Part shown: positions 52,818-64,000 of the stretch, in pieces
Numbering within the stretch: position 1 is the stretch's first letter
How the letters are laid out: the number at the start of each line of letters is the position of its first letter
Origin: Candidatus Hydrogenedens sp.
GTDB lineage: Bacteria > Hydrogenedentota > Hydrogenedentia > Hydrogenedentales > JAEUWI01
Length of the DNA: 64,000 bases
Direction: 5' to 3'
Assembly (NCBI GenBank): GCA_016125095.1
Contig: WGMK01000010.1
Location: forward strand, 331,336 to 395,335
Position numbers and translations under genes: made by a program
Notes under the pieces: model-generated
The model's input: only the letters and a program-made list of their open reading frames with translations
What the model was told of the DNA's origin: nothing
Database searches by the model: none

Positions 52818-55800
52818 TCAGAAGCAGAAGCCGTCTTCGCTTTCGCCGCACCACCGAATGGTTCCACGATTGAAGAACTGCACCACGCGGAGCAGTTCGG
52901 ACAATTGGATGACCCAATCCTGCACCTGAAAGTCTGCGGCGTGGGGGGCGCAGCCGTCCTTGGCGCCTGCGCCCGGGGCGTAGGCATCCTCCGAGCCGCT
53001 GCTGCAATGCAGTCCGCCCGCGTTGTAGAACTGGATCAACCGCAGCAATTCGGCCAGGTCGATCTTGCCATTGCCATCGAGGTCGGCCGAATGCCGGTGC
53101 TGCTGCGGTTCGCCCTCGGCAGCGCTTTCGCCCTCAAGGGTGGTTTCGCCTTCTTCTCCTTCGACGCTACCTTCACCTTCCGCCGGGTGACCTTCGCCCT
53201 CGAGCGTGCCGCCGCCGCAGGGGCAGCCGCCGCCGTTGGCCGTGGCGTCCGCATTCAGCGCCCACGGCACGAACTGGGGCAGGGGACTCGCCGCCATCAG
53301 GCTGGCGTTGTACTCGCCGAGATTGCACGCCCCATCCAGATCGGCGTCACCATTCCATGCCAGAAACCGTTCAGACGTCCGGTCGAAATCGTTCAGGTCG
53401 AGGTCCGGGAGCGAGAACGGTAGCGAGTCCAGCGCATCGACAATGATAGCGATGGTGGCCTCTTCGCCCAGCGTCATGAGGCCCGCGATCGCATTCACGA
53501 CCGTGGCGCGCGGAAACAGGGTGAACAGCAGCGGCTGCTGGGTGTTTACTGCCGTCGCGAATTCATTGGCCAACGGCAGGTTGGTCTCGTAGGCCGAACG
53601 CACGCAGCAGTAGGCATGATAGTCCGGGTCGGCCAGCACGGCGTCCACCAGCCGCGCGTGCAGCGTATCCGGGATGCCGTTCTCGTCGAGGTCGGCCGTG
53701 TCGGGGTCCTCGCCCACCAGCGGATTCGCATAGATGGTCCGCATCGCCGCCTCGAAACCGGCGTCGATGCCCTCGGCATACGCGCAATCGCGGTCGCATC
53801 CTTCGATTTCGCATGAAGGTTCGCCCTCGCCGCCGCCTTCCGTCGCGCCCTCGCCGTCCACGGCTCCCTCGGGCTTGCCCTCGCCGTCGACCGCGCCTTC
53901 AACAGCAGCCTCGCCTTCGCCCTCGGCGTCACCCGGATCGATGCAAAGGCCCGGCCCCGGCTGAAGCAGCGCATCGGTTGCCGCCAGCAGATAGCAGCAC
54001 CGGCTGCGCAGCCGGAAGCAGGAATACTCGTCGGCGTTGCTCACGCCGTCGTTGTCGGCGTCGCCATTGAAGGCGAGTAACGCCGGCAGCCGCGTGTAGT
54101 TGCTGGGATTTACCGCCGTTACCCCGAGGTCGATATCCGTAACCGCCGCCGCCTCCGTGGTCGCCGTCACCGGTATCGCCACGGAGTCGTCATCGCCCAG
54201 CAACATGTACGCCGCCAGCACTTCGTGCAGCTGCGGCGATATGGCGTTCACCAGGCCAGTCGGCCCGCCCAGGTCGGCGTACATCCGGGCCTTGTTGTTG
54301 TTCCAGCCTTCGCACACCTGCTGCGATGCACCAAGGCCGCCCTGCGTGAGGAAGTAATTAATCAGCGCGAACTCGTCGCTGTCGAGCAGACCGTTGGGGA
54401 AGATTTGCTCGTCCTCGATGCTGAATCCGCCGTTGATGTCCGACGAACTGGGGTCGAAGGAATAGCCGCCCAACTGAGACCGGAACTGTTCGAGCGCCCG
54501 ATCGACCGCCGCCATCTTGCCGTCGAAATCCACGGGACCGCAGGGACCGCTGCCATCCGGGCCGCACTGGTCGAAACAGCGATCCACATTGCCGCCCAGC
54601 GGCGTCATGGCCGCCGCCACATAGTCGGCGCGCGTGCCGCCCTTGCCCGCCACATAGTTACGCTCGAAGAGGTTGGTCATCTCATCGCCGTCGGGGTCGC
54701 CTCCGCTGGCCAGTTGCTGCCGCCCGCCGGGCGCGGAATCGCGGTAGGGGTAGTAATAGCCGGAAAGCTGCAGCAGCTTGGAGAAGTATTCGGCGTGCGC
54801 CTGGCTCACGGTCATCAGCGCAGCGAGCACATGCTGGAATTCCTGGATAAGTTTGAATTGTGCGTCGCCCTGCAGCCGCGACAGGTTGCCGGTGTACTTC
54901 TTTCGCGCGCCCAGGTAATGTGCGAAGTCGGGCGCGCAGGTCGCGCCGGCCAGGAGTGCGGCCTCCCAGCAGTCCGCGATGCCGTTGGCGTCCAAGTCTT
55001 CCGTCGCCCAGCCGTCGCTGCCGGGAATCGCTGCATAGAGCGCGCTGCCTTCCGCATCAAGGAGGGCCAGAAAGCCCGAGCAGTCCGCCGGCTCTTCGCC
55101 ATTGTTGTTCTCTTCGCCGTCGCAGCCGCCACCATTGGCGAGCACGTCCGGGTTCATCGCGTTGGCAACGAACGAGACGTAGCCGCCGAGGTCGCGCGGC
55201 ACCGCATTGAACTCGCTCAGGTTGCACACGCCGTCGTCGTCGGCATCGCCCAGCGCCCCGACATACGGTGCTGCGCTGGTGTCGAACAGCGTCGCATCGA
55301 CTTCGATCTGTTTGTCTTCATCCAGCAGGGTGTTCAACTCGCTGAAGATGGCGAGCATGGCCGCCACGCCGGCCGGTTCGCCCTGGGTCACCAGCCCCAC
55401 CAGCGCGCGCTGCACCTTGCCCACGTCGATAACGAGGCCGATGCCTTGCTCGACGGGCAGCCCGTAGTATTGCTGCGAGAGCTTGTCCCAGAGTTCGTCG
55501 AGGTAGCCCTTCACCACCACCTCGTTGTTCAGGTACGCGCTACCCACCTCGAGGTAATGCGGATTGTCGGCGCACCAGAGGACTGCGTCGATCAGCAGCG
55601 CCTGCGCGTAGTCGACGATGCCGTTCTCATCCAGGTCCGTCGCGTAGGAATCTTCGCACAGCAGGCAGATCGGATCGGTGAGGGGGATGGTGATCGTCTT
55701 CGTATAGAGGTACTCGATAGAGCGCGCGAACTCGACGCCCCGCAATATACCCTCGGGGCAGGCGGCCGTCAGCACCGCGTCCACGTAGGCGTCGCGGTTG

Positions 55801-57644
55801 CCGAAGTTGCTGAGGACCGCGTCGTACTCGGCTTTGTTGTTGTAGGAGTCGCCATCGATGTCGGCGGCGGGGGAGAAGGGCTGGATAAACTGACCCAGCA
55901 AGTCGATCGTAAAGGGCTGATAGGGCCGCGTCAGGTAGGCGCTCAGCTTGTTCTTGATCATGCTGTTCACGCTGGGATTCACCAGCAGCAGCGCCGCGAG
56001 CACGTTTTCCGAACTGCGCAATTGCGTGGAATACGCGGGTTCGGTCTTCAGCAGGTTGAGCGTTGCCTCGTATTGGCCGCGCAACTGCGGATACAGGGGA
56101 TGGCTTGGGCGGCACAGCACCTCGGCCAGCGGCGCGATTTCCCAGCTGTCGATCATGCCGTTCCCGTCGAAGTCCTTCAGCTCCCAGAAATCGCCGAACA
56201 GCAGATAGAGCGGCTGGCCCTGCCCGTCGATGCCGGGCAAAAGGGGACAGTCGCTGTCGAGATCGCCGCCGCCGCCTTCGCCCGTGCCGATGGTGTACCA
56301 AGCGCCTTGGATAAAGTCGTCCGCGCCCAGCCCGCCCAAGGGGTTCCACACGCCATCGTACACCGAGTCGTTGTCGATGAAGTCGATGCTCAGGCTGCCA
56401 TCGCCGGTGGACACGCTCGTCGTCACCACCCAGTCGCGGCCGCTGCCGCTCACGCTTAGAATCGCCGCGCCGGCCGCTGTGCCCTTTTCGTCGATTGCGA
56501 AGTCGCCCGCGTCCACCCCGGTCACGCCCTCGGTGAAGCGGACGTTGAAGGAGACCGTGCTATCGACCGGCGGGTCGGCGCTGCCGAGCGTGATCGATTC
56601 GCAGCGCGGCGGCACCGGGTCGCTGAACCAGGGGATGTACGCCTGATAGACCGCGTTCTCCATCAGGTAGATGTAGCCCTGCGGGCTCAGGTGAATGGGG
56701 TCCAGTTCGTTGCTGCCGGCCATCGCCTGGCGCGGACTCCACAGCCCGCGGTCGCCGCCGGGAAAATTGGCATAGCCGCCGCCCGGGCCGTCGGGCAGCC
56801 ACCCGGGATTCGCACCGACGTTCAGGCTCGGAATCCCAAAGCGCGCCATCATCGTGCCGAAGTTGTGCACGTAGCGCACCCGGTCCATTCCAAGCGCCAA
56901 GTCCTTCTTCAACCGCTCGAGTTCCACGAAGACATCGTTCACCTGTCGCTGATATCCTGCGATCTGCGCGGCTGTCGTGTAGTCGAACTGAAACAGGTCC
57001 GGGTTGAAGATCGGCACATGGATGCCGAAGGCCACGAGCGCGATTGCGGTCGGGTTTTCGATGCTCTTCACATAGGTGACGATGTCGAAGGGATTGAAGG
57101 GATTCGTCCAGGTATCGTAGGTGTAGCCTTCGGCGATGTTCAGGTAGTCGTAGCCGTTGATGACGCAACGGATGTTCGGCCGTACGCTCAAGCAGTGCTG
57201 GATGACATTGCGGATATGGTCGCGCGTGGCGGCGAGCAGGGCATTCGTATCGCCCTCGCTCATACCGATGGTCCAGTTTATGTTGACGTCGTTGCCGCCG
57301 AGGCTGATATGCACCACGTCGATCGTGGGGTAGGCATTCAGCATCGACGTGATTTCGTCCTTGAGCCCCGGCGTGTCCCAGCCCTCGGCCGTGGGGCTGT
57401 GCAGCGCGATATCGCCGACTTCCGTGAACTCGCCGCCCACCGCCTGCTTCACGTCGTTGCGCCCGAGCACCGAACGCAGCGCGGGCGGGTCCTGCTCGGC
57501 CCAGGGGAAATACGTCCAGCTATCGCCGACGTAGAGAATACGGGGTATCGGAGCCGCGTTCCCCGTTGCAGCGGGCAGCATTGCGCTGAGCACACAGGCC
57601 ACCACCGCCACGAAGTCACGGATTCGGTTACAGGAAGACTGCAT
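52818..57644 (-). CDS. Giant (~1608 aa) secreted protein: N-terminal SGNH/GDSL hydrolase-like domain, three or more ~150-aa internal repeat modules bracketed by DxDxDG calcium-loop-like motifs, EG-rich acidic linkers, C-terminal tandem dockerin-like repeat pair
   Basis: ATG at 57644 (MQSSCNRIRDFVAVVACVLSAMLPAATGNA signal peptide). ILYVGDSWT (GDS-W block I). Repeated modules starting DLDENGIVDY / DLDANGIADC / DLDENGIPDT and ending NGDADxDGxxNxxEY. Linkers GEGEAAVEGAVDGEGKPEG.. and EGEGHPAEGEGSVEGEEGETTLEGE. C-terminus DLDGNGKIDLAELLRLIQFYN ... LSELLRVVQFFNRG, homologous to the C-terminus of the 144..1577 protein. Confidence 0.7.
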   Translation of the reverse strand: MQSSCNRIRDFVAVVACVLSAMLPAATGNAAPIPRILYVGDSWTYFPWAEQDPPALRSVLGRNDVKQAVGGEFTEVGDIALHSPTAEGWDTPGLKDEITSMLNAYPTIDVVHISLGGNDVNINWTIGMSEGDTNALLAATRDHIRNVIQHCLSVRPNIRCVINGYDYLNIAEGYTYDTWTNPFNPFDIVTYVKSIENPTAIALVAFGIHVPIFNPDLFQFDYTTAAQIAGYQRQVNDVFVELERLKKDLALGMDRVRYVHNFGTMMARFGIPSLNVGANPGWLPDGPGGGYANFPGGDRGLWSPRQAMAGSNELDPIHLSPQGYIYLMENAVYQAYIPWFSDPVPPRCESITLGSADPPVDSTVSFNVRFTEGVTGVDAGDFAIDEKGTAAGAAILSVSGSGRDWVVTTSVSTGDGSLSIDFIDNDSVYDGVWNPLGGLGADDFIQGAWYTIGTGEGGGGDLDSDCPLLPGIDGQGQPLYLLFGDFWELKDFDGNGMIDSWEIAPLAEVLCRPSHPLYPQLRGQYEATLNLLKTEPAYSTQLRSSENVLAALLLVNPSVNSMIKNKLSAYLTRPYQPFTIDLLGQFIQPFSPAADIDGDSYNNKAEYDAVLSNFGNRDAYVDAVLTAACPEGILRGVEFARSIEYLYTKTITIPLTDPICLLCEDSYATDLDENGIVDYAQALLIDAVLWCADNPHYLEVGSAYLNNEVVVKGYLDELWDKLSQQYYGLPVEQGIGLVIDVGKVQRALVGLVTQGEPAGVAAMLAIFSELNTLLDEDKQIEVDATLFDTSAAPYVGALGDADDDGVCNLSEFNAVPRDLGGYVSFVANAMNPDVLANGGGCDGEENNNGEEPADCSGFLALLDAEGSALYAAIPGSDGWATEDLDANGIADCWEAALLAGATCAPDFAHYLGARKKYTGNLSRLQGDAQFKLIQEFQHVLAALMTVSQAHAEYFSKLLQLSGYYYPYRDSAPGGRQQLASGGDPDGDEMTNLFERNYVAGKGGTRADYVAAAMTPLGGNVDRCFDQCGPDGSGPCGPVDFDGKMAAVDRALEQFRSQLGGYSFDPSSSDINGGFSIEDEQIFPNGLLDSDEFALINYFLTQGGLGASQQVCEGWNNNKARMYADLGGPTGLVNAISPQLHEVLAAYMLLGDDDSVAIPVTATTEAAAVTDIDLGVTAVNPSNYTRLPALLAFNGDADNDGVSNADEYSCFRLRSRCCYLLAATDALLQPGPGLCIDPGDAEGEGEAAVEGAVDGEGKPEGAVDGEGATEGGGEGEPSCEIEGCDRDCAYAEGIDAGFEAAMRTIYANPLVGEDPDTADLDENGIPDTLHARLVDAVLADPDYHAYCCVRSAYETNLPLANEFATAVNTQQPLLFTLFPRATVVNAIAGLMTLGEEATIAIIVDALDSLPFSLPDLDLNDFDRTSERFLAWNGDADLDGACNLGEYNASLMAASPLPQFVPWALNADATANGGGCPCGGGTLEGEGHPAEGEGSVEGEEGETTLEGESAAEGEPQQHRHSADLDGNGKIDLAELLRLIQFYNAGGLHCSSGSEDAYAPGAGAKDGCAPHAADFQVQDWVIQLSELLRVVQFFNRGTIRWCGESEDGFCF

Positions 57645-57792
57645 TGAAGCACCCCAAGCGAAAAAAGACAGCCCACGACAGGGCTGTGGCCGGATACCCC
57701 CGCGACCGGCTTTTGCCCATATTCGCAGTATATCATGCTTCTTGAAGATTGCCAAGAGGGCGAAGGCGGCGCTTGACATTTTGTTTAGCTGA

Positions 57793-59545: not shown

Positions 59546-59932
59546 TTGGAGGCCCTGGTCCGATTCCGTCTGATGGTAGTCCGTTGGTCGCTGGTGCTCG
59601 TGGCGCTGGCGGCGGCGGGGTGTTATCTATGGGAAAAAAAAGTGGGGCTCGGCCTGGCGATGGGGGGGCTCGGGGGCGTCTTGGCTTTCTGGATTTTAGC
59701 CCGCCGCGTAGAAAAATTTGCGCAGGTTACGCCCGCTCAAGTACACTCCGAGGCCGTGAAGGGGATGGTACTCCGCATGGCGGTGTACGGGGTCGTTCTG
59801 TGGCGGGCTTGGTCACTCGATCCCGTCGGGCGGTTGCCCCTCTTCGCGGCCGTGGCAGGCATTCTGATTCCCCGCTTGGTCCTCTATTTTCTGGCACTTA
59901 CCAATATCGATCTAGGCAAAAAGCACAGTTAA
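59546..59932 (+). CDS. atpI: Small 4-TM membrane protein, ATP synthase protein I/AtpZ-like
   Basis: TTG start per ORF track (alternative ATG 9 codons in). Hydrophobic 128-aa protein immediately upstream of atpB, with its stop overlapping the atpB start (TAAATG). Confidence 0.5.
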   Translation: MEALVRFRLMVVRWSLVLVALAAAGCYLWEKKVGLGLAMGGLGGVLAFWILARRVEKFAQVTPAQVHSEAVKGMVLRMAVYGVVLWRAWSLDPVGRLPLFAAVAGILIPRLVLYFLALTNIDLGKKHS

Positions 59933-60691
59933 ATGGAACATATCGGTAACAGGCTGGTCTGGTATTTCATCCCGTTCACGGATATCGAGATTCCGATGGG
60001 CGGGCTCAATGTGCTCACCGTTTTCAATACCCTTGTGGTCATGGCGGTGTTGTTTTTCCTTTGCCGTCTGGGTGTGCGCCGCTTCGCGCTCGAGCCCACG
60101 CGCGGCCAGTACATGGTCGAGCTGATCACGGGCGTCTTCGACAACCTGGTCATCGCCTCGCTCGAACTCGAGACCAAGGAAAAGAACCGCAAGTTTTTCT
60201 TCCTCATCGCCTCGCTCTTTCTCTTCCTGCTGCTCTCGAACTTCATGAGCTTCCTGCCCACGCACTATTTCGAGGAGCCGACGGCGGACATCAACTGCAC
60301 GATGGGCCTGGGGCTCATGGGCATGGCCATCGCCACCTATTGCGCCATCAAGGCCAAGGGCGGCATCGGCTACGTCGAGGAGCTGCTGGGACCGCTCTGG
60401 CATCAGGAAGACGCCACGGGCGGCGCGGCCATCGCGGGCAAGCTCTCGGCGCTGTTCTTCTTTCCGCTGAACATCATCGGCGAAATCGCCAAAGTCATCT
60501 CCATTTCCTTCCGTTTGTTCGGCAATATCACCGGCGGCGGCATCATCATCATCGTGATTTCCCACCTCGTGTGGAACTTCAGCGTGCTGTCCATCGGCAT
60601 GGACCTGTTCTTCATCTTCTTCGTCGGCACGGTGCAGGCCTTCGTGTTCACCATGCTGACGCTGACCTATATCTCGGTCGCCATCAAGTAG
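59933..60691 (+). CDS. atpB: F0F1 ATP synthase subunit a
   Basis: Conserved stator Arg in ISISFRLFGNITGGG; 5-6 TM helices; 252 aa. Confidence 0.85.
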   Translation: MEHIGNRLVWYFIPFTDIEIPMGGLNVLTVFNTLVVMAVLFFLCRLGVRRFALEPTRGQYMVELITGVFDNLVIASLELETKEKNRKFFFLIASLFLFLLLSNFMSFLPTHYFEEPTADINCTMGLGLMGMAIATYCAIKAKGGIGYVEELLGPLWHQEDATGGAAIAGKLSALFFFPLNIIGEIAKVISISFRLFGNITGGGIIIIVISHLVWNFSVLSIGMDLFFIFFVGTVQAFVFTMLTLTYISVAIK

Positions 60692-60707
60692 GCGCCGCGG
60701 GGGCATC

Positions 60708-61691
60708 GTGATCGAACTCGAACCACATCAATGGGAAATGCTCGGCCGCTATCTCGGCGCGGGCATCGCGCTGGGCATGGGCGGCCTGGGCGCCGCGCTG
60801 GGCATGGGCAATGCCGCCGGCGCCGCGTCGAACGCCATGATGCGCCAGCCCACCCAGCAGGGCGAACTCCGCCGCACCATGCTCATCGGCCAGGCCATCA
60901 CGGGCGACGCCTCGATCTTCGCCCTTGTGGTCGGCCTGTTCATCCTGTTTTTCCCGGCCGTACAGCCGGAAGAAGTGGGCGGTAACTTTTTCGCCGCCAT
61001 GACCGGCGCGGGCATCGCGATCGGCTTCGGCGCCTTCGGCAGCGGCTTCGGCTGCGGTTTCGCCGCGGCCAACGCCTGCGCAGGCGTCGCGCGCAATCCC
61101 CGCCGCGCGGGCCAGACCACGCAGTCGATGATCATCGGCCAGGCGGTGGCGCAGTCGCCCAGCATCTTCGCGCTTGTGGTTGCGCTCATTCTGATTATCC
61201 GCCAGGCCCCCGGCACCGACCTCGCCACGATGGGCGTGTGCATCGGCGCGGGCATCGCGATGGGCGTCAGCGCCATCGGTTCGGGTATGGGCTCGGGCCA
61301 GACCGCCGGCGGCGCCGTGCTCGGCCTCAGCCGCTGGCCGCGCTCCTACGGCGTCACGCTGCGTACGATGCTGATCGGCCAGGCCGTCTGCGAAACGCCG
61401 GCCATCTTCGGCATGCTCGTGGCCTTCATCATGATGTTTGCCATGCAGGACATCCCCGAGGGCATCCTGGGCTTCGCGCACATGCTGGCGGCGGGCATCG
61501 CGGTTGGCTTCGGCGGCATCGGGCCGGGCATCGGCTCGGGGCTTACCTCGGGTCCGGCCTGCGTGATGGCGGCCACGTATCCGCGCCGCGACACGCTCAT
61601 TCTCCGCACGATGCTGATCGGCCAGGCCGTGGCGCAGTCCACCGCCATCTACGCCCTGATCATCGCGCTGGCGATTCTCTACGTCGTCTAG
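60708..61691 (+). CDS. atpE: Fused quadruple-hairpin ATP synthase c subunit (four tandem c-subunit repeats in one 327-aa polypeptide, 8 predicted TM helices)
   Basis: Four ~80-aa repeats, each with a GxGxGxG helix-1 ([12 protein letters not shown] / [12 protein letters not shown] / [12 protein letters not shown] / [12 protein letters not shown]), an R(Q/N/W)P-type polar loop, and a helix-2 TMLIGQA... At the conserved ion-binding Glu position: repeat 1 has Gly with Asp one residue later (ITGDAS), repeat 2 Gln (AQSPS), repeat 3 Glu (CETPA), repeat 4 Gln (AQSTA). Nucleotide-level repeats of atgctgatcggccaggccgt. No internal stops. GTG start (alternative ATG at 60738). Confidence 0.75.
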
Positions 61692-61747
61692 GCGGCGCGG
61701 GCAACACATACGGTAACAAGGCGCCTGGGGCGCAGAAGGATAGGAAC

Positions 61748-62071
61748 ATGGACGCGACAACGATGCTGATGATGATGGAAACCGTTGTCACGCAGGTGCC
61801 GCAGAAGGCGGCGGCCGCGGGCGTGACCGGTGCGGATCTGGTGAAGGCCGGCGCGCTGATCGGCGCGGGTATCTGCATGGGCTTCGGCGCCATCGGGCCG
61901 GGCGTGGGCGAAGGCTACGCCGCGGGCAAGGCCTGCGAATCCGTGGGGCGCGCCCCGCAGGAAGCCGGCCTGCTGACCCGCACCATGCTGATCGGCCAGG
62001 CCGTGGCGGAATCGACGGGCATCTACTCGCTCGTTATCGCCCTGCTCATGCTGTTCGTGGTGGGTGGCTGA
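61748..62071 (+). CDS. atpE: F0F1 ATP synthase subunit c (monomeric, single hairpin) with a Na+-type two-carboxylate ion-binding motif
   Basis: Helix-2 [23 protein letters not shown] is almost identical to the Ilyobacter tartaricus Na+-binding c subunit (E65-S66-T67...Y70 equivalents). Helix-1 [13 protein letters not shown] has Glu at the Q32-equivalent position, the two-carboxylate arrangement described for the Fusobacterium nucleatum c-ring. RBS AAGGA upstream. Confidence 0.8.
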
Positions 62072-62114
62072 ACCTCCGGTACTGAAATCGCAATCGCAAG
62101 GCGGAAGCTGACCC

Positions 62115-62546
62115 TTGGTCAATCTTAACTTCACCATAATCGTCGAGACAGGACTGTTCCTCGTGTTCCTGTGGCTCATGTACGCGTTCGTGCTGCGACC
62201 GCTGCTGAAAGTCATGGATGCGCGCGAGGCGCAGTTGACCGGCGACGAGACGGCGGCGGCGAAGCTGGAGCAGGATTGCGAAGATACCGAGCGGCTGTAC
62301 CGCGTGTCGCTGGCGGCGATTCACCAGCGCGGCTCGATGCGTGTGGCCGAGGCCAAGCGCGAAGAGCAGGCCCGCCACAACGAGCAGGTGCACGCGCTGA
62401 AGGCCGAGGGCGCCGAGCGCATGTCCGTGCTGCTCAAGGAAATGCGCGAGCAGGTGCGCCAGCAGCGCGCCGCTTCGGACGCCGTGGTGGCCGACATCAA
62501 GATGGCCCTGTCCGACAAGCTCGGCTCCGGAAAGGGGGTTCAGTAA
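62115..62546 (+). CDS. atpF2: F0F1 ATP synthase subunit b' (second b-type stator stalk subunit)
   Basis: Single N-terminal TM helix (IIVETGLFLVFLWLMYAFVLRPL), then a long charged coiled-coil helix. Stop overlaps the atpF start (TAATG). Confidence 0.6.
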   Translation: MVNLNFTIIVETGLFLVFLWLMYAFVLRPLLKVMDAREAQLTGDETAAAKLEQDCEDTERLYRVSLAAIHQRGSMRVAEAKREEQARHNEQVHALKAEGAERMSVLLKEMREQVRQQRAASDAVVADIKMALSDKLGSGKGVQ

Positions 62547-63325
62547 TGTTCCGCATCGCCCCCAAGCCCTTCCTGCTCGGCCTGTTCAGCTTGGCCTTCG
62601 TGGGCTGGCTCATCGGCAATAGCATCTGGGGCTTCCCGGGGCTCAGTGCCGAGTACCTCGAGGCCCATAAGCACGAGCACGAGCACTACCTCGAGGTGGT
62701 GAAGAGCGACGACTATAAGCGCTATATCCAGCGCCCGCACCTCTTCGACATGTCGAAGGCGCACGATCATCACTTCGAGGCGAGCGTTAAGTTCATCGAA
62801 GAATACGAGAAGAACCCCGAGCTGGTGGCGGAAGAGGCGCGCCTCGCGAAGCGCGGCCTGTATTTCGATTTCTTCAACGCCACGCTGGTCGTGGTGCTGT
62901 TTATCCGATTCGGTTGGCCGCCGCTCATGCGCTTCCTCGACAGCAGCATCGCCGAGAAGGTGGAGCGCATGCACGCCGCCAAGGCGGCACGCGCCGAGGC
63001 GGCCGGACGGCTCGACGGCCTGCAGTCGAAGGTAAAAGAATTGCCCGAGGCGGAGGCGCGCGCGACCGAGGAATCCGAGGCCGCCATCGAGCGCCTGCGC
63101 GAAGAAGCCCGGGTGCGTAATGAAGAGCGCCTCGAGGAAGTGCGCCGCGAATTGGCCGACCAGGAAGCGGGTGCCGTGGCCGCAGCGGAGCGCCGCCTGC
63201 GCCGCGAGCTTTTCGACAAGGCTGCGCGCGAGTTCGAGGAAGAGCTGCGTAAGAATCCCCCCGAGTACGCCCGAGGCGGGCTGGTGGACGCGTTCGCGGC
63301 CGCCCTGGAAGGGAAGCGGCTATGA
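62546..63325 (+). CDS. atpF: F0F1 ATP synthase subunit b with ~100-aa N-terminal extension (extra TM helix plus His-rich segment)
   Basis: ATG at 62546 (MFRIAPKPFLLGLFSLAFVGWLIG). The canonical b TM helix LVVVLFIRFGWPPLMRFLD is preceded by an extra TM and a His-rich stretch (HKHEHEHYL...HDHHFE). C-terminal coiled-coil Ala/Glu/Arg-rich helix. Confidence 0.65.
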   Translation: MFRIAPKPFLLGLFSLAFVGWLIGNSIWGFPGLSAEYLEAHKHEHEHYLEVVKSDDYKRYIQRPHLFDMSKAHDHHFEASVKFIEEYEKNPELVAEEARLAKRGLYFDFFNATLVVVLFIRFGWPPLMRFLDSSIAEKVERMHAAKAARAEAAGRLDGLQSKVKELPEAEARATEESEAAIERLREEARVRNEERLEEVRRELADQEAGAVAAAERRLRRELFDKAAREFEEELRKNPPEYARGGLVDAFAAALEGKRL

Positions 63326-63867
63326 GAAATTACCTGCTGGCAGAGCGCTATGCGCGCGGGCTATCGGTGAGCCTTCCGGACACCGACGCCATGAAGCTCG
63401 CCTGCGAGGGCCTCGAGACGGTTGCCGAACTGTTTGAAACCCATCACGACTTCCGCCGTCTCATCATGAATCCCTCGATTCCGCTGACCAAGCGGCTCGA
63501 GGTGGTCTCCGAAATTCTCGACAAGAGCGGCATCGCCGTGGAAGAGGTCAAGCGCCTGTTCCGCGAACTGCTCCGCCGCGGCCGCGTGCCGCTGCTTCCC
63601 GACGTGGCGGTGGTGTTCAGCCAGCTGCTCGACGCGCGCCTGAACCAGACCCAGGCGCGGGTGCGTTCGGCGGCGGCGCTCGACGATGCCCAGAAGGCCC
63701 GCGTGACGGCCGCGCTCGAGGCCTTTACCGGCAAAGAGATTCATGCCGTGTACTCCGTGGATCCGCGCCTGCTCGGCGGCGTGCGCGCCGAGGTGAGCGG
63801 CGTGGTGATCGACGGCACGATACGTTCCCAGATTCGACGTCTCCGCGATGCGATTCTCGCGGATTAA
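63322..63867 (+). CDS. atpH: F0F1 ATP synthase subunit delta (OSCP)
   Basis: MRNYLLAERYARGL N-terminus and C-terminal VYSVDPRLLGGVRAEVSGVVIDGTIRSQIRRL are typical of subunit delta. Overlaps the atpF stop (ATGA). Confidence 0.75.
   Translation: MRNYLLAERYARGLSVSLPDTDAMKLACEGLETVAELFETHHDFRRLIMNPSIPLTKRLEVVSEILDKSGIAVEEVKRLFRELLRRGRVPLLPDVAVVFSQLLDARLNQTQARVRSAAALDDAQKARVTAALEAFTGKEIHAVYSVDPRLLGGVRAEVSGVVIDGTIRSQIRRLRDAILAD

Positions 63868-64000
<133 letters not shown>

Follow-up and report, generated by a model that had tools for sequence, protein, structure and literature searches.

Introduction

How far can the rotor of an F-type ATP synthase depart from a ring of identical, ion-binding c subunits? 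The ion-to-ATP ratio is the central thermodynamic parameter of rotary ATPases, and the number of identical c subunits is generally regarded as what fixes it in the F-type. To our knowledge, one type of exception is recognized, the hybrid rotors of acetogens such as Acetobacterium woodii, in which 1 site of 11 is missing. In the present study, we analyzed a stretch of 64,000 nucleotides from Candidatus Hydrogenedens sp. (contig WGMK01000010.1, positions 331,336 to 395,335 of the forward strand; hereafter, the window), in which an F-type operon carries two consecutive c-subunit genes (lengths in amino acids, aa):

60708..61691, + strand: c4, four fused c-subunit hairpins, 327 aa, GTG start; four Pfam ATP-synt_C stretches
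61748..62071, + strand: monomeric c subunit, 107 aa; Pfam ATP-synt_C, E 3.6e-17

The distribution of ligand residues in these two proteins and their relatives suggests that c4 and the adjacent monomeric c probably co-assemble in one heteromeric Na+ c-ring, which would be an extended form of the A. woodii-style F/V hybrid rotor.

A four-hairpin c subunit of the F-type

The c4 open reading frame (ORF) runs over 327 codons without an internal stop, and a search with the Pfam profile ATP-synt_C (PF00137) counted four stretches in it (E 5.8e-51; 171 bits against a gathering cutoff of 24), which supports the description in an initial annotation of this DNA, made from the sequence alone, of four tandem hairpins in a single chain. 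The hairpins occupy approximately residues 1-88 (h1), 89-168 (h2), 169-250 (h3), and 251-327 (h4). The top NCBIfam models for c4 were F0F1 ATP synthase subunit C models, all of which scored over their cutoffs. Two other identities were considered and rejected. A V/A-type proteolipid was excluded by the scores of the V-type K models (25-83 bits against cutoffs of 101-211) and by the F-type operon. Regarding the N-ATPases, the hallmark of which is the gene order atpDCQRBEFAG (PMC2881411), TIGR03322 gave 118.9 for c4, as the sum of four hairpins, and 61.5 for the monomer against a cutoff of 130.85, and the gene order in the window is canonical for the F-type.

The AlphaFold2 (AF2) model of c4, which was based on an alignment of 50 sequences, had a pLDDT of 95.5 and a pTM of 0.91 and showed eight long transmembrane helices joined by connectors of 7-10 residues, so short that the hairpins must sit as neighbors. 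Its best match in the PDB was c1 of A. woodii (4bem_J; root mean square deviation 1.4 A, 37% identity), on which two consecutive hairpins superposed; this protein had been named as an analogue in the initial annotation and is the closest solved structure. The multi-hairpin proteolipids of the V/A-type were the second-best fold matches. No solved chain was found to match over half of the c4 model, the query-normalized TM-score being at most 0.46. The helix-1 glycines and the R-x-P residues of the loop showed no variation in any of the four hairpins among 50 homologues.

A tandem repeat of approximately 240 nucleotides was not detected in c4 by Tandem Repeats Finder. The hairpins share 53-60% identity with one another at the DNA level and 39-47% at the protein level, and every hairpin resembles the monomer (44-52%) more closely than it resembles the other three. 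An identical c4 protein is present in the NCBI record of a Candidatus Hydrogenedens sp. metagenome-assembled genome (MAG) and in an independent Logan assembly, and relatives with 94 and 89% identity (L013 and L005, respectively) derive from other samples. The ratio of nonsynonymous to synonymous substitution rates (dN/dS) of c4 against L013 and L005 was 0.07 and 0.12 overall and 0.04-0.20 for single hairpins, ion-blind ones included; a further relative, L006, was left out of this comparison because its synonymous sites were saturated and an indel shifts the register. An expansion or collapse of repeats during assembly was thus excluded by the repeat search, the divergence of the hairpins, and the independent occurrences of the protein, and a pseudogene was excluded by dN/dS.

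Ion-site residues of the fused and monomeric c subunits

Six site columns were scored, namely, Gln32, Val63, Glu65, Ser66, Thr67, and Tyr70 in the numbering of the c subunit of Ilyobacter tartaricus, which served as the alignment reference. The residues of c4 in these columns, in that order, are as follows:

h1: M-I-G-D-A-F
h2: C-V-Q-S-P-F
h3: S-V-E-T-P-F
h4: S-V-Q-S-T-Y

The motifs ITGDAS, AVAQSPS, AVCETPA, AVAQSTA, and GVGEGY quoted in the initial annotation were all found in the translations, and the alignment to I. tartaricus c agreed with its placement of Met, Cys, Ser, and Ser in the helix-1 Gln32 column and of Gly, Gln, Glu, and Gln in the Glu65 column, which is occupied by G66 (with D67 adjacent), Q149, E229, and Q310. 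A helix-2 carboxylate in every hairpin is a feature of the monomer and not of c4, in which h3 alone has Glu, and the complete two-carboxylate ligand set is present in no c4 hairpin.

The description of h3 as a canonical ion site did not hold up. The pocket of E229 has Ser in place of the helix-1 Gln or Glu and receives Pro and Phe instead of the Thr67 and Tyr70 partners from h2, and the carboxylate itself is replaced by Gln in 56 of 115 close relatives. The carboxylate patterns of these relatives from h1 to h4 were GQQQ in 51, GQEQ (the type of the window) in 39, SQEQ in 8, GQDQ in 6, SQQQ in 5, and four rarer patterns in the other 6, such that nearly half of the family (56 of 115) carries no carboxylate in any hairpin. 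The state of the Glu column in h3 switched at least nine times on a neighbor-joining tree. Judging from this pattern of substitutions, the E229 pocket is evolutionarily dispensable.

The Asp of h1, which had been described as shifted by one residue, is indeed present; however, it takes the Ser66 column, where it would face the Gln site of h2 and be no substitute for the carboxylate of h1. It was found in only 6 of the 115 relatives, most of which have Ser. The I-G-D-A motif of h1 is common to the c4 of the window and its closest relatives, L005 and L013.

The site set of the monomer is E-V-E-S-T-Y, a complete two-carboxylate Na+ motif by sequence. Besides being aligned to I. tartaricus c (1yce), the monomer was identical to the c subunit of Fusobacterium nucleatum (3zk1) at Glu32, Val63, Glu65, Ser66, Thr67, and Tyr70, the positions that define the two-carboxylate Na+ site in the latter (PMC3692424), and the assignment of the second gene as a single-hairpin c with this motif was therefore upheld. 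The monomer shares 62% identity with the c11-forming c subunit of I. tartaricus. At its N-terminus (window 61748-61840, + strand), the monomer has an extension of approximately 25-30 residues; this length is kept in the monomers of Hydrogenedentota (103-113 aa), and the extension is missing from the 82-aa monomers of Desulfobacterales and from the c subunits of I. tartaricus and F. nucleatum.

Distribution of the fused gene and its pairing with a monomer

The first homology search yielded 115 clusters of approximately 325 aa with 59-89% identity to c4, the named sources of which were Hydrogenedentota or unclassified bacterial MAGs, and five proteins of approximately 485 aa with six hairpins. 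A metagenome scan gave 447 relatives, and 1230 matches were obtained when 1.84 billion representatives were searched exhaustively; among these matches are F-type-like proteins with 2, 3, 4, and 5 or more hairpins and many Glu/Gln patterns. The scan of a genome collection was performed with a single query and covered close relatives only (Hydrogenedentota MAGs, some of which were labeled "uncultured Nitrospirales"). A look for the same fusion in related genomes, which the initial annotation had suggested, found it in Hydrogenedentota and Desulfobacterales.

The fused gene was followed by a monomeric c gene at 73 fetched loci, 63 of which had four hairpins and the others 2-6, some being cut by contig ends; the architectures besides 4-1 were 6-1, 5-1, 3-1, and 2-1. 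Fifteen fetched loci were without a called monomer, and most of these were ended by a contig edge. The partner monomer was nearly always of the E-V-E-S-T-Y type, and the pairing holds in two phyla and for the five- and six-hairpin versions.

The sister family, which is approximately 45% identical to c4, occurs in Desulfobacterales (Thermodesulfobacteriota) and comprises proteins with four, five, and six hairpins (324, approximately 404, and approximately 485 aa), for example, L002 10001-11464 with six, L055 947-2161 with five, and L045-L092 with four hairpins (324 aa). Its pattern is E-Q-Q-Q(-Q-Q), in which a site of the two-carboxylate kind is kept in the first hairpin only, and the fused gene is always followed by that of an 82-aa monomer, in operons that encode a complete F1Fo. 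A complete operon with a six-hairpin member of this family reads atpZ-I-a-c6-c-b'-b-delta-alpha-gamma-beta-epsilon. The six columns compare as follows:

First hairpin: Hydrogenedentota family M-V-G-S-P-F; Desulfobacterales family E-V-E-S-A-F
Internal hairpins: Hydrogenedentota family h2 C-V-Q-S-P-F and h3 S-V-[E/Q/D]-T-P-F; Desulfobacterales family x-V-Q-T-P-F
Last hairpin: Hydrogenedentota family [S/C]-V-Q-S-T-Y; Desulfobacterales family N-V-Q-S-T-Y
Monomer: E-V-E-S-T-Y in both families

Hairpin-by-hairpin identities between the two families were weakly diagonal (46, 52, 48, and 51% on the diagonal and 35-49% off it), which suggests that both descend from a single old fusion. A duplication of hairpin 2 gave rise to the five-hairpin form.

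Other Hydrogenedentota MAGs (L009 10034-10348, L010 4518-4838, and L011 10034-10348) have a syntenic operon with a monomeric c alone and no c4, and c4 is, therefore, an add-on to a standard F1Fo operon. In the monomers of L009-L011, Val replaces Thr at the Thr67 column (E-V-E-S-V-Y), and some of these MAGs are labeled "uncultured Nitrospirales".

Two further groups of fused proteins were observed. A separate and numerous four-hairpin family (P0166, P0178, P0181, P0185, P0187, and approximately 50 more) of approximately 318 aa is 27-31% identical to c4 and has the pattern E-Q-E-D or E-Q-E-E, i.e., three sites in four hairpins, with F0F1 c models as the best NCBIfam matches. P0139 (1139 aa, 15 hairpins), P0220, P0189, P0186, P0194, and P0182 have 7-15 fused hairpins, nearly all of which keep Glu; they resemble the single-polypeptide rotor of Methanopyrus kandleri, and P0139 best matches V-type K models.

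A proposed hybrid rotor and its alternatives

In a Na+ c-ring, the Val63 carbonyl and Ser66 are supplied by the adjacent subunit, the Ser66 and Tyr70 of which hydrogen-bond Glu65 (PMC3692424). In NtpK of Enterococcus hirae, the donors Leu61 and Thr64 are in the N-terminal hairpin and Gln110 and Glu139 are in the C-terminal hairpin (PMC2359735), a layout which indicates that the donor hairpin comes before the carboxylate hairpin. By this rule, each ion site of the present rotor would lie between two hairpins, one of which gives the helix-2 Glu and the helix-1 Gln or Glu, while the preceding one gives the Val63 carbonyl, Ser66, Thr67 (through water), and Tyr70. The interface between the preceding subunit and h1 would then be dead, with Met and Gly at key positions. 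The interface of h1 with h2 would also be dead due to the Gln of h2, with the Asp of h1 aiming into its pocket in the lineage of the window; that of h2 with h3 would be a stripped-down Glu site in which the Na+ ligand set is missing and which is lost in half of the relatives; and that of h3 with h4 would again be dead (Gln). At the last interface, the Val, Ser, Thr, and Tyr of h4 would complete the full Na+ site of the next subunit in the ring, a monomeric c.

This rule accounts for the whole pattern of donor residues. The last hairpin reads [S/C/N]-V-Q-S-T-Y in nearly every four-, five-, and six-hairpin protein, whereas Pro and Phe occupy the Thr67 and Tyr70 columns of the internal hairpins. 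A hairpin that stands before a dead (Gln) pocket is freed from its Thr67/Tyr70 duty, which accounts for Pro and Phe there; the last hairpin precedes another polypeptide and keeps V-x-Q-S-T-x-x-Y, and h4 is most simply understood as the neighbor of a monomeric c within one ring, the Na+ site of which it would complete. The c1 subunit of A. woodii, which comes from a hybrid ring of solved structure, follows the same rule, with Q-V-E-T-S-F in its first hairpin (Phe before the dead pocket) and Q-V-Q-T-T-Y in its second. About half of the relatives are free of carboxylates, and the fused subunits of these members cannot make a working ring alone. The conserved pairing with a monomer, the fit to c1, and the retention of R-x-P and the glycines point the same way, to c4 as part of a mixed ring, and the mixed ring with fewer ions per turn that the initial annotation had envisaged is the reading best backed by the conservation pattern.

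Each c4 would accordingly form an arc of four hairpins that carries 0-1 ion, probably none; with one or more such arcs set among Na+-binding monomers, the number of Na+ per revolution and per ATP would be well below that of a homomeric ring. On the assumption of 11 hairpins, which is based on the 62% identity of the monomer to I. tartaricus c (c11) and on the A. woodii ring of 11, a ring of one c4 and seven monomers would carry 7-8 ions in each turn (2.3-2.7 Na+/ATP, compared with 3.7 in a homomeric c11), and in a ring of one six-hairpin subunit of the EQQQQQ type and five monomers this number would be 6 (2.0 Na+/ATP). It is conceivable, and we put it forward tentatively as somewhat less probable than its negation, that the count of blind hairpins in the fusion (c4, c5, or c6) acts as a heritable gear in at least two phyla, in which an arc of 3-5 contiguous blind hairpins would set a Na+/ATP ratio of approximately 2-2.7. 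Such a ratio would fall under that of any F-type enzyme known to us.

Several points weigh against a mixed ring of this kind. Co-assembly and stoichiometry are deduced here from sequence alone. In an engineered c10 of Bacillus PS3, one hairpin with Glu56 changed to Gln was sufficient for no ATP to be made (PMC8809890), and 3-4 contiguous inert hairpins are therefore expected to cripple synthesis unless they are tolerated, as A. woodii tolerates one. With a contiguous inert arc of approximately 100-130 degrees, there would be no torque from ions over roughly a whole F1 step. In addition, a second, conventional ATPase may be encoded elsewhere in the genome, beyond the window. On the other side, thousands of such genes are under purifying selection, from which we infer that the enzymes cope with the blind arc.

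Among the alternatives, the one that survives best, while still being unlikely, is that c4 serves mainly as an assembly template or size-setter, which nucleates the ring or sets its curvature and hairpin count and may then stay or leave, any change in the ion-to-ATP ratio being a side effect. An AtpI-type assembly factor is encoded among the Fo genes, the helix-1 glycine packing motifs of the fused arc are very conserved, and the end hairpins retain their features in spite of a variable count of fused hairpins (3, 4, 5, and 6), all of which would suit a template. However, the F1-contacting R-x-P loop is kept in all four hairpins, as expected for a permanent part of the rotor, and the ligand set of h4 is preserved for a working neighbor site. 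If c4 stays in the ring, this explanation overlaps with that of the hybrid rotor.

It is very unlikely that c4 forms a homo-oligomeric, V-type-like ring by itself, for example, from three copies with 12 hairpins, which would transport approximately one ion per ATP and replace the monomer ring under some conditions. Homo-oligomeric rings built from multi-hairpin proteolipids with reduced sites do occur in the V-type and in part of the A-type (PMC9171764; PMC2359735), and one Glu (E229) would give a trimer three-fold symmetry; however, the carboxylate-free relatives (56 of 115) would transport no ions in such a ring, and the h3 Glu is itself as changeable as described above, with its nine or more switches of state. 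Moreover, the V-Q-S-T-Y of h4 would meet the dead Met/Gly pocket of h1, which leaves its conservation unexplained, and the monomer gene is present wherever downstream sequence exists, with no terminator-like site found between the two genes in the window.

An equally improbable reading is that the c4 of the window has two working sites, one at E229 (h2/h3) and one at h1/h2 that is rebuilt from Asp67 and Gln149, in which case less capacity would have been lost than the residues suggest. By the donor rule, Asp67 in the Ser66 column of h1 does point at the Gln149 pocket, and the I-G-D-A motif is shared with L005 and L013; nevertheless, the Asp is rare among the relatives (6 of 115, most having Ser), and both pockets are without the Thr67/Tyr70 and the helix-1 Gln/Glu ligands. 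We know of no precedent for a carboxylate at the Ser66 column as the coupling residue, which also counts against this reading.

The possibility that the four-hairpin ORF results from an error of assembly or annotation, or that it is a pseudogene in decay made up of tandem c genes, may be dismissed with near certainty: repetitive coding sequence is open to mis-assembly in principle, but no DNA-level repeat was detected in hairpins of merely 53-60% DNA identity, the 327-aa architecture recurs in more than 115 protein clusters (NCBI, JGI, ENA, and Logan) and 447 metagenome stretches, dN/dS is approximately 0.1, and the AF2 model is confident. The hybrid rotor of c4 and monomeric c is, thus, the explanation that we prefer.

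Operon and neighboring genes

The other genes of the operon in the window are as follows:

59546..59932, + strand: atpI-like gene, 128 aa; Pfam ATP-synt_I, E 5.1e-15; gene also called in L001
59933..60691, + strand: Fo subunit a, 252 aa; Pfam ATP-synt_A, E 2.6e-40
62115..62546, + strand: Fo subunit b', 143 aa; Pfam ATP-synt_B, E 8.4e-06, under the gathering score; called in L001
62546..63325, + strand: Fo subunit b, approximately 259 aa; Pfam ATP-synt_B, E 1.2e-04 on residues 107-225; coordinates from the L001 gene call
63322..63867, + strand: F1 subunit delta (OSCP); Pfam OSCP, E 9.2e-34
63880..64000, + strand: N-terminus of F1 alpha, from translation; truncated by the window end

The order atpI-a-c4-c-b'-b-delta-alpha, with a delta of the OSCP type, is that of an F-type operon, and the canonical F-type context given in the initial annotation was confirmed by Pfam matches for I, a, c4, c, b', b, and delta together with the N-terminus of alpha. 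The continuation alpha-gamma-beta-epsilon was seen in the relatives L006 (Hydrogenedentota) and L002, which gives the complete F-type order. In an alignment with E. coli a and relatives, subunit a keeps the stator Arg in SFRLFGN (the Arg of RLFGN) and is otherwise ordinary. Subunit b (62546-63325, + strand) extends approximately 90 residues beyond the usual length, with two hydrophobic segments around a His-rich insert (EAHKHEHEHYLE...KAHDHHFE); a b of 250-258 aa was found in relatives with and without c4, and the long b consequently looks like a feature of Hydrogenedentota.

Among the 20 large ORFs of the window that were scanned, no Na+ pump (Rnf, Nqr, decarboxylases, or Mrp) or second ATPase was found; the functions recognized in them were limited to RND efflux, SulP, a LUD-domain Fe-S protein, histidine kinases, RadA, and PyrF. 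An ORF of 1653 aa (52818-57779, - strand), located upstream of the operon region, has many repeated acidic DLDxNGxxD motifs that resemble calcium-binding or dockerin-like repeats, and its counterpart in L001 has no recorded Pfam match. Three long antisense ORFs (264, 358, and 175 aa; 59912-62215, - strand) overlap the genes for a, c4, and c; since the products of the sense strand match their families strongly, these are most likely artefacts of high GC content and not genes.

Discussion

Regarding novelty, no description of F-type c subunits with 4-6 hairpins and at most one site was found in the full-text literature searched; the survey of hybrid-rotor distribution by Brandt and Muller (2015; Biol Chem 396:1031) may mention such genes, and a 2026 mBio paper reports 2-4 copies of atpE in Desulfatiglandales and nothing further. 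The statement in the initial annotation that such a fusion is very unusual therefore holds for the literature searched and fails for sequence space, in which hundreds to thousands of relatives with three to six hairpins were found. The components are known from the hybrid F/V rotors of acetogens (PMC9171764; PMC7911925) and from the multiplied hairpins of archaeal A-type enzymes (PMC2359735).

If the proposed hybrid rotor is correct, a natural and widespread class of F-type rotors, from Hydrogenedentota and from Desulfobacterales of marine and sediment origin, would have a third or more of the ring inert, and contiguously so. Such a rotor would coast through a sector of approximately one F1 catalytic step, which would challenge current models of torque generation and offer a direct test of the share of a ring that must be ion-active for torque and ATP synthesis. 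It might yield more ATP per ion at a high sodium-motive force or, in reverse, build a steeper Na+ gradient per ATP, and the number of fused hairpins would represent a simple genetic way to adapt the gearing of an ATP synthase to a life at low energy or at a high sodium-motive force. It would also be an F-type counterpart of the steps by which V-type pumps are proposed to have evolved from synthases. The genes are labeled merely "ATP synthase F0 subunit C", and metabolic reconstructions will therefore assume a normal ratio.

Among known systems, the c11 ring of F. nucleatum (3zk1; PMC3692424) resembles the monomer of the window, in which the ligands are identical and the surrounding sequence is near-identical; however, that ring is homomeric, no fused c gene accompanies it, and the window monomer carries approximately 25 extra N-terminal residues. 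The engineered fused c10 of Bacillus PS3 (Mitome et al., 2004, via PMC8809890) demonstrated that linked hairpins work in an F-type ring and that single carboxylates may be altered. In that artificial fusion, one Gln hairpin in ten abolishes synthesis, whereas 3-5 Gln hairpins in a row are under purifying selection in the present families.

The proteolipids of the V/A-type, such as NtpK of E. hirae (2bl2), the eukaryotic c, c', and c'', the three-hairpin c of Methanocaldococcus jannaschii, and the 13-hairpin K of M. kandleri, likewise have fused hairpins, some of which have lost their carboxylates, and two successive hairpins together form their Na+ site (PMC2359735), as proposed for c4. They differ in belonging to V/A enzymes, whereas c4 is F-type by its operon and by hidden Markov models, and, in the known examples, in keeping a site in at least one of every two or three hairpins, or in all 13 in the case of M. 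kandleri. In addition, inert sites alternate with active sites in these proteolipids, whereas the c4 family has a contiguous inert arc of 3-5.

The hybrid rotor of A. woodii and Clostridium aceticum (4bem; Matthies et al., 2014, via PMC9171764; PMC7911925) is the nearest system as a whole, since there, as in the window, the F-type operon has a gene for a multi-hairpin c that includes a Glu-to-Gln hairpin and, after it, a gene for a single-hairpin Na+ c. The two hairpins of A. woodii c1 (Q-V-E-T-S-F and Q-V-Q-T-T-Y) are mirrored by h3 and h4 of c4 (S-V-E-T-P-F and S-V-Q-S-T-Y), and the signature Q-S/T-T-x-x-Y of the last hairpin is common to both. The A. woodii ring, which consists of 9 c2/3 and 1 c1, has lost 1 of 11 sites (PMC9171764), and c1 has two hairpins and retains one competent, complete Na+ site, whereas c4 has four hairpins with three dead sites and one that is degenerate and apparently dispensable. 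Furthermore, A. woodii belongs to the Firmicutes, whereas the fused c subunits described herein occur in Hydrogenedentota and Desulfobacterales, stand next to a monomer with the two-carboxylate motif, and include relatives in which five or six hairpins share a single site.

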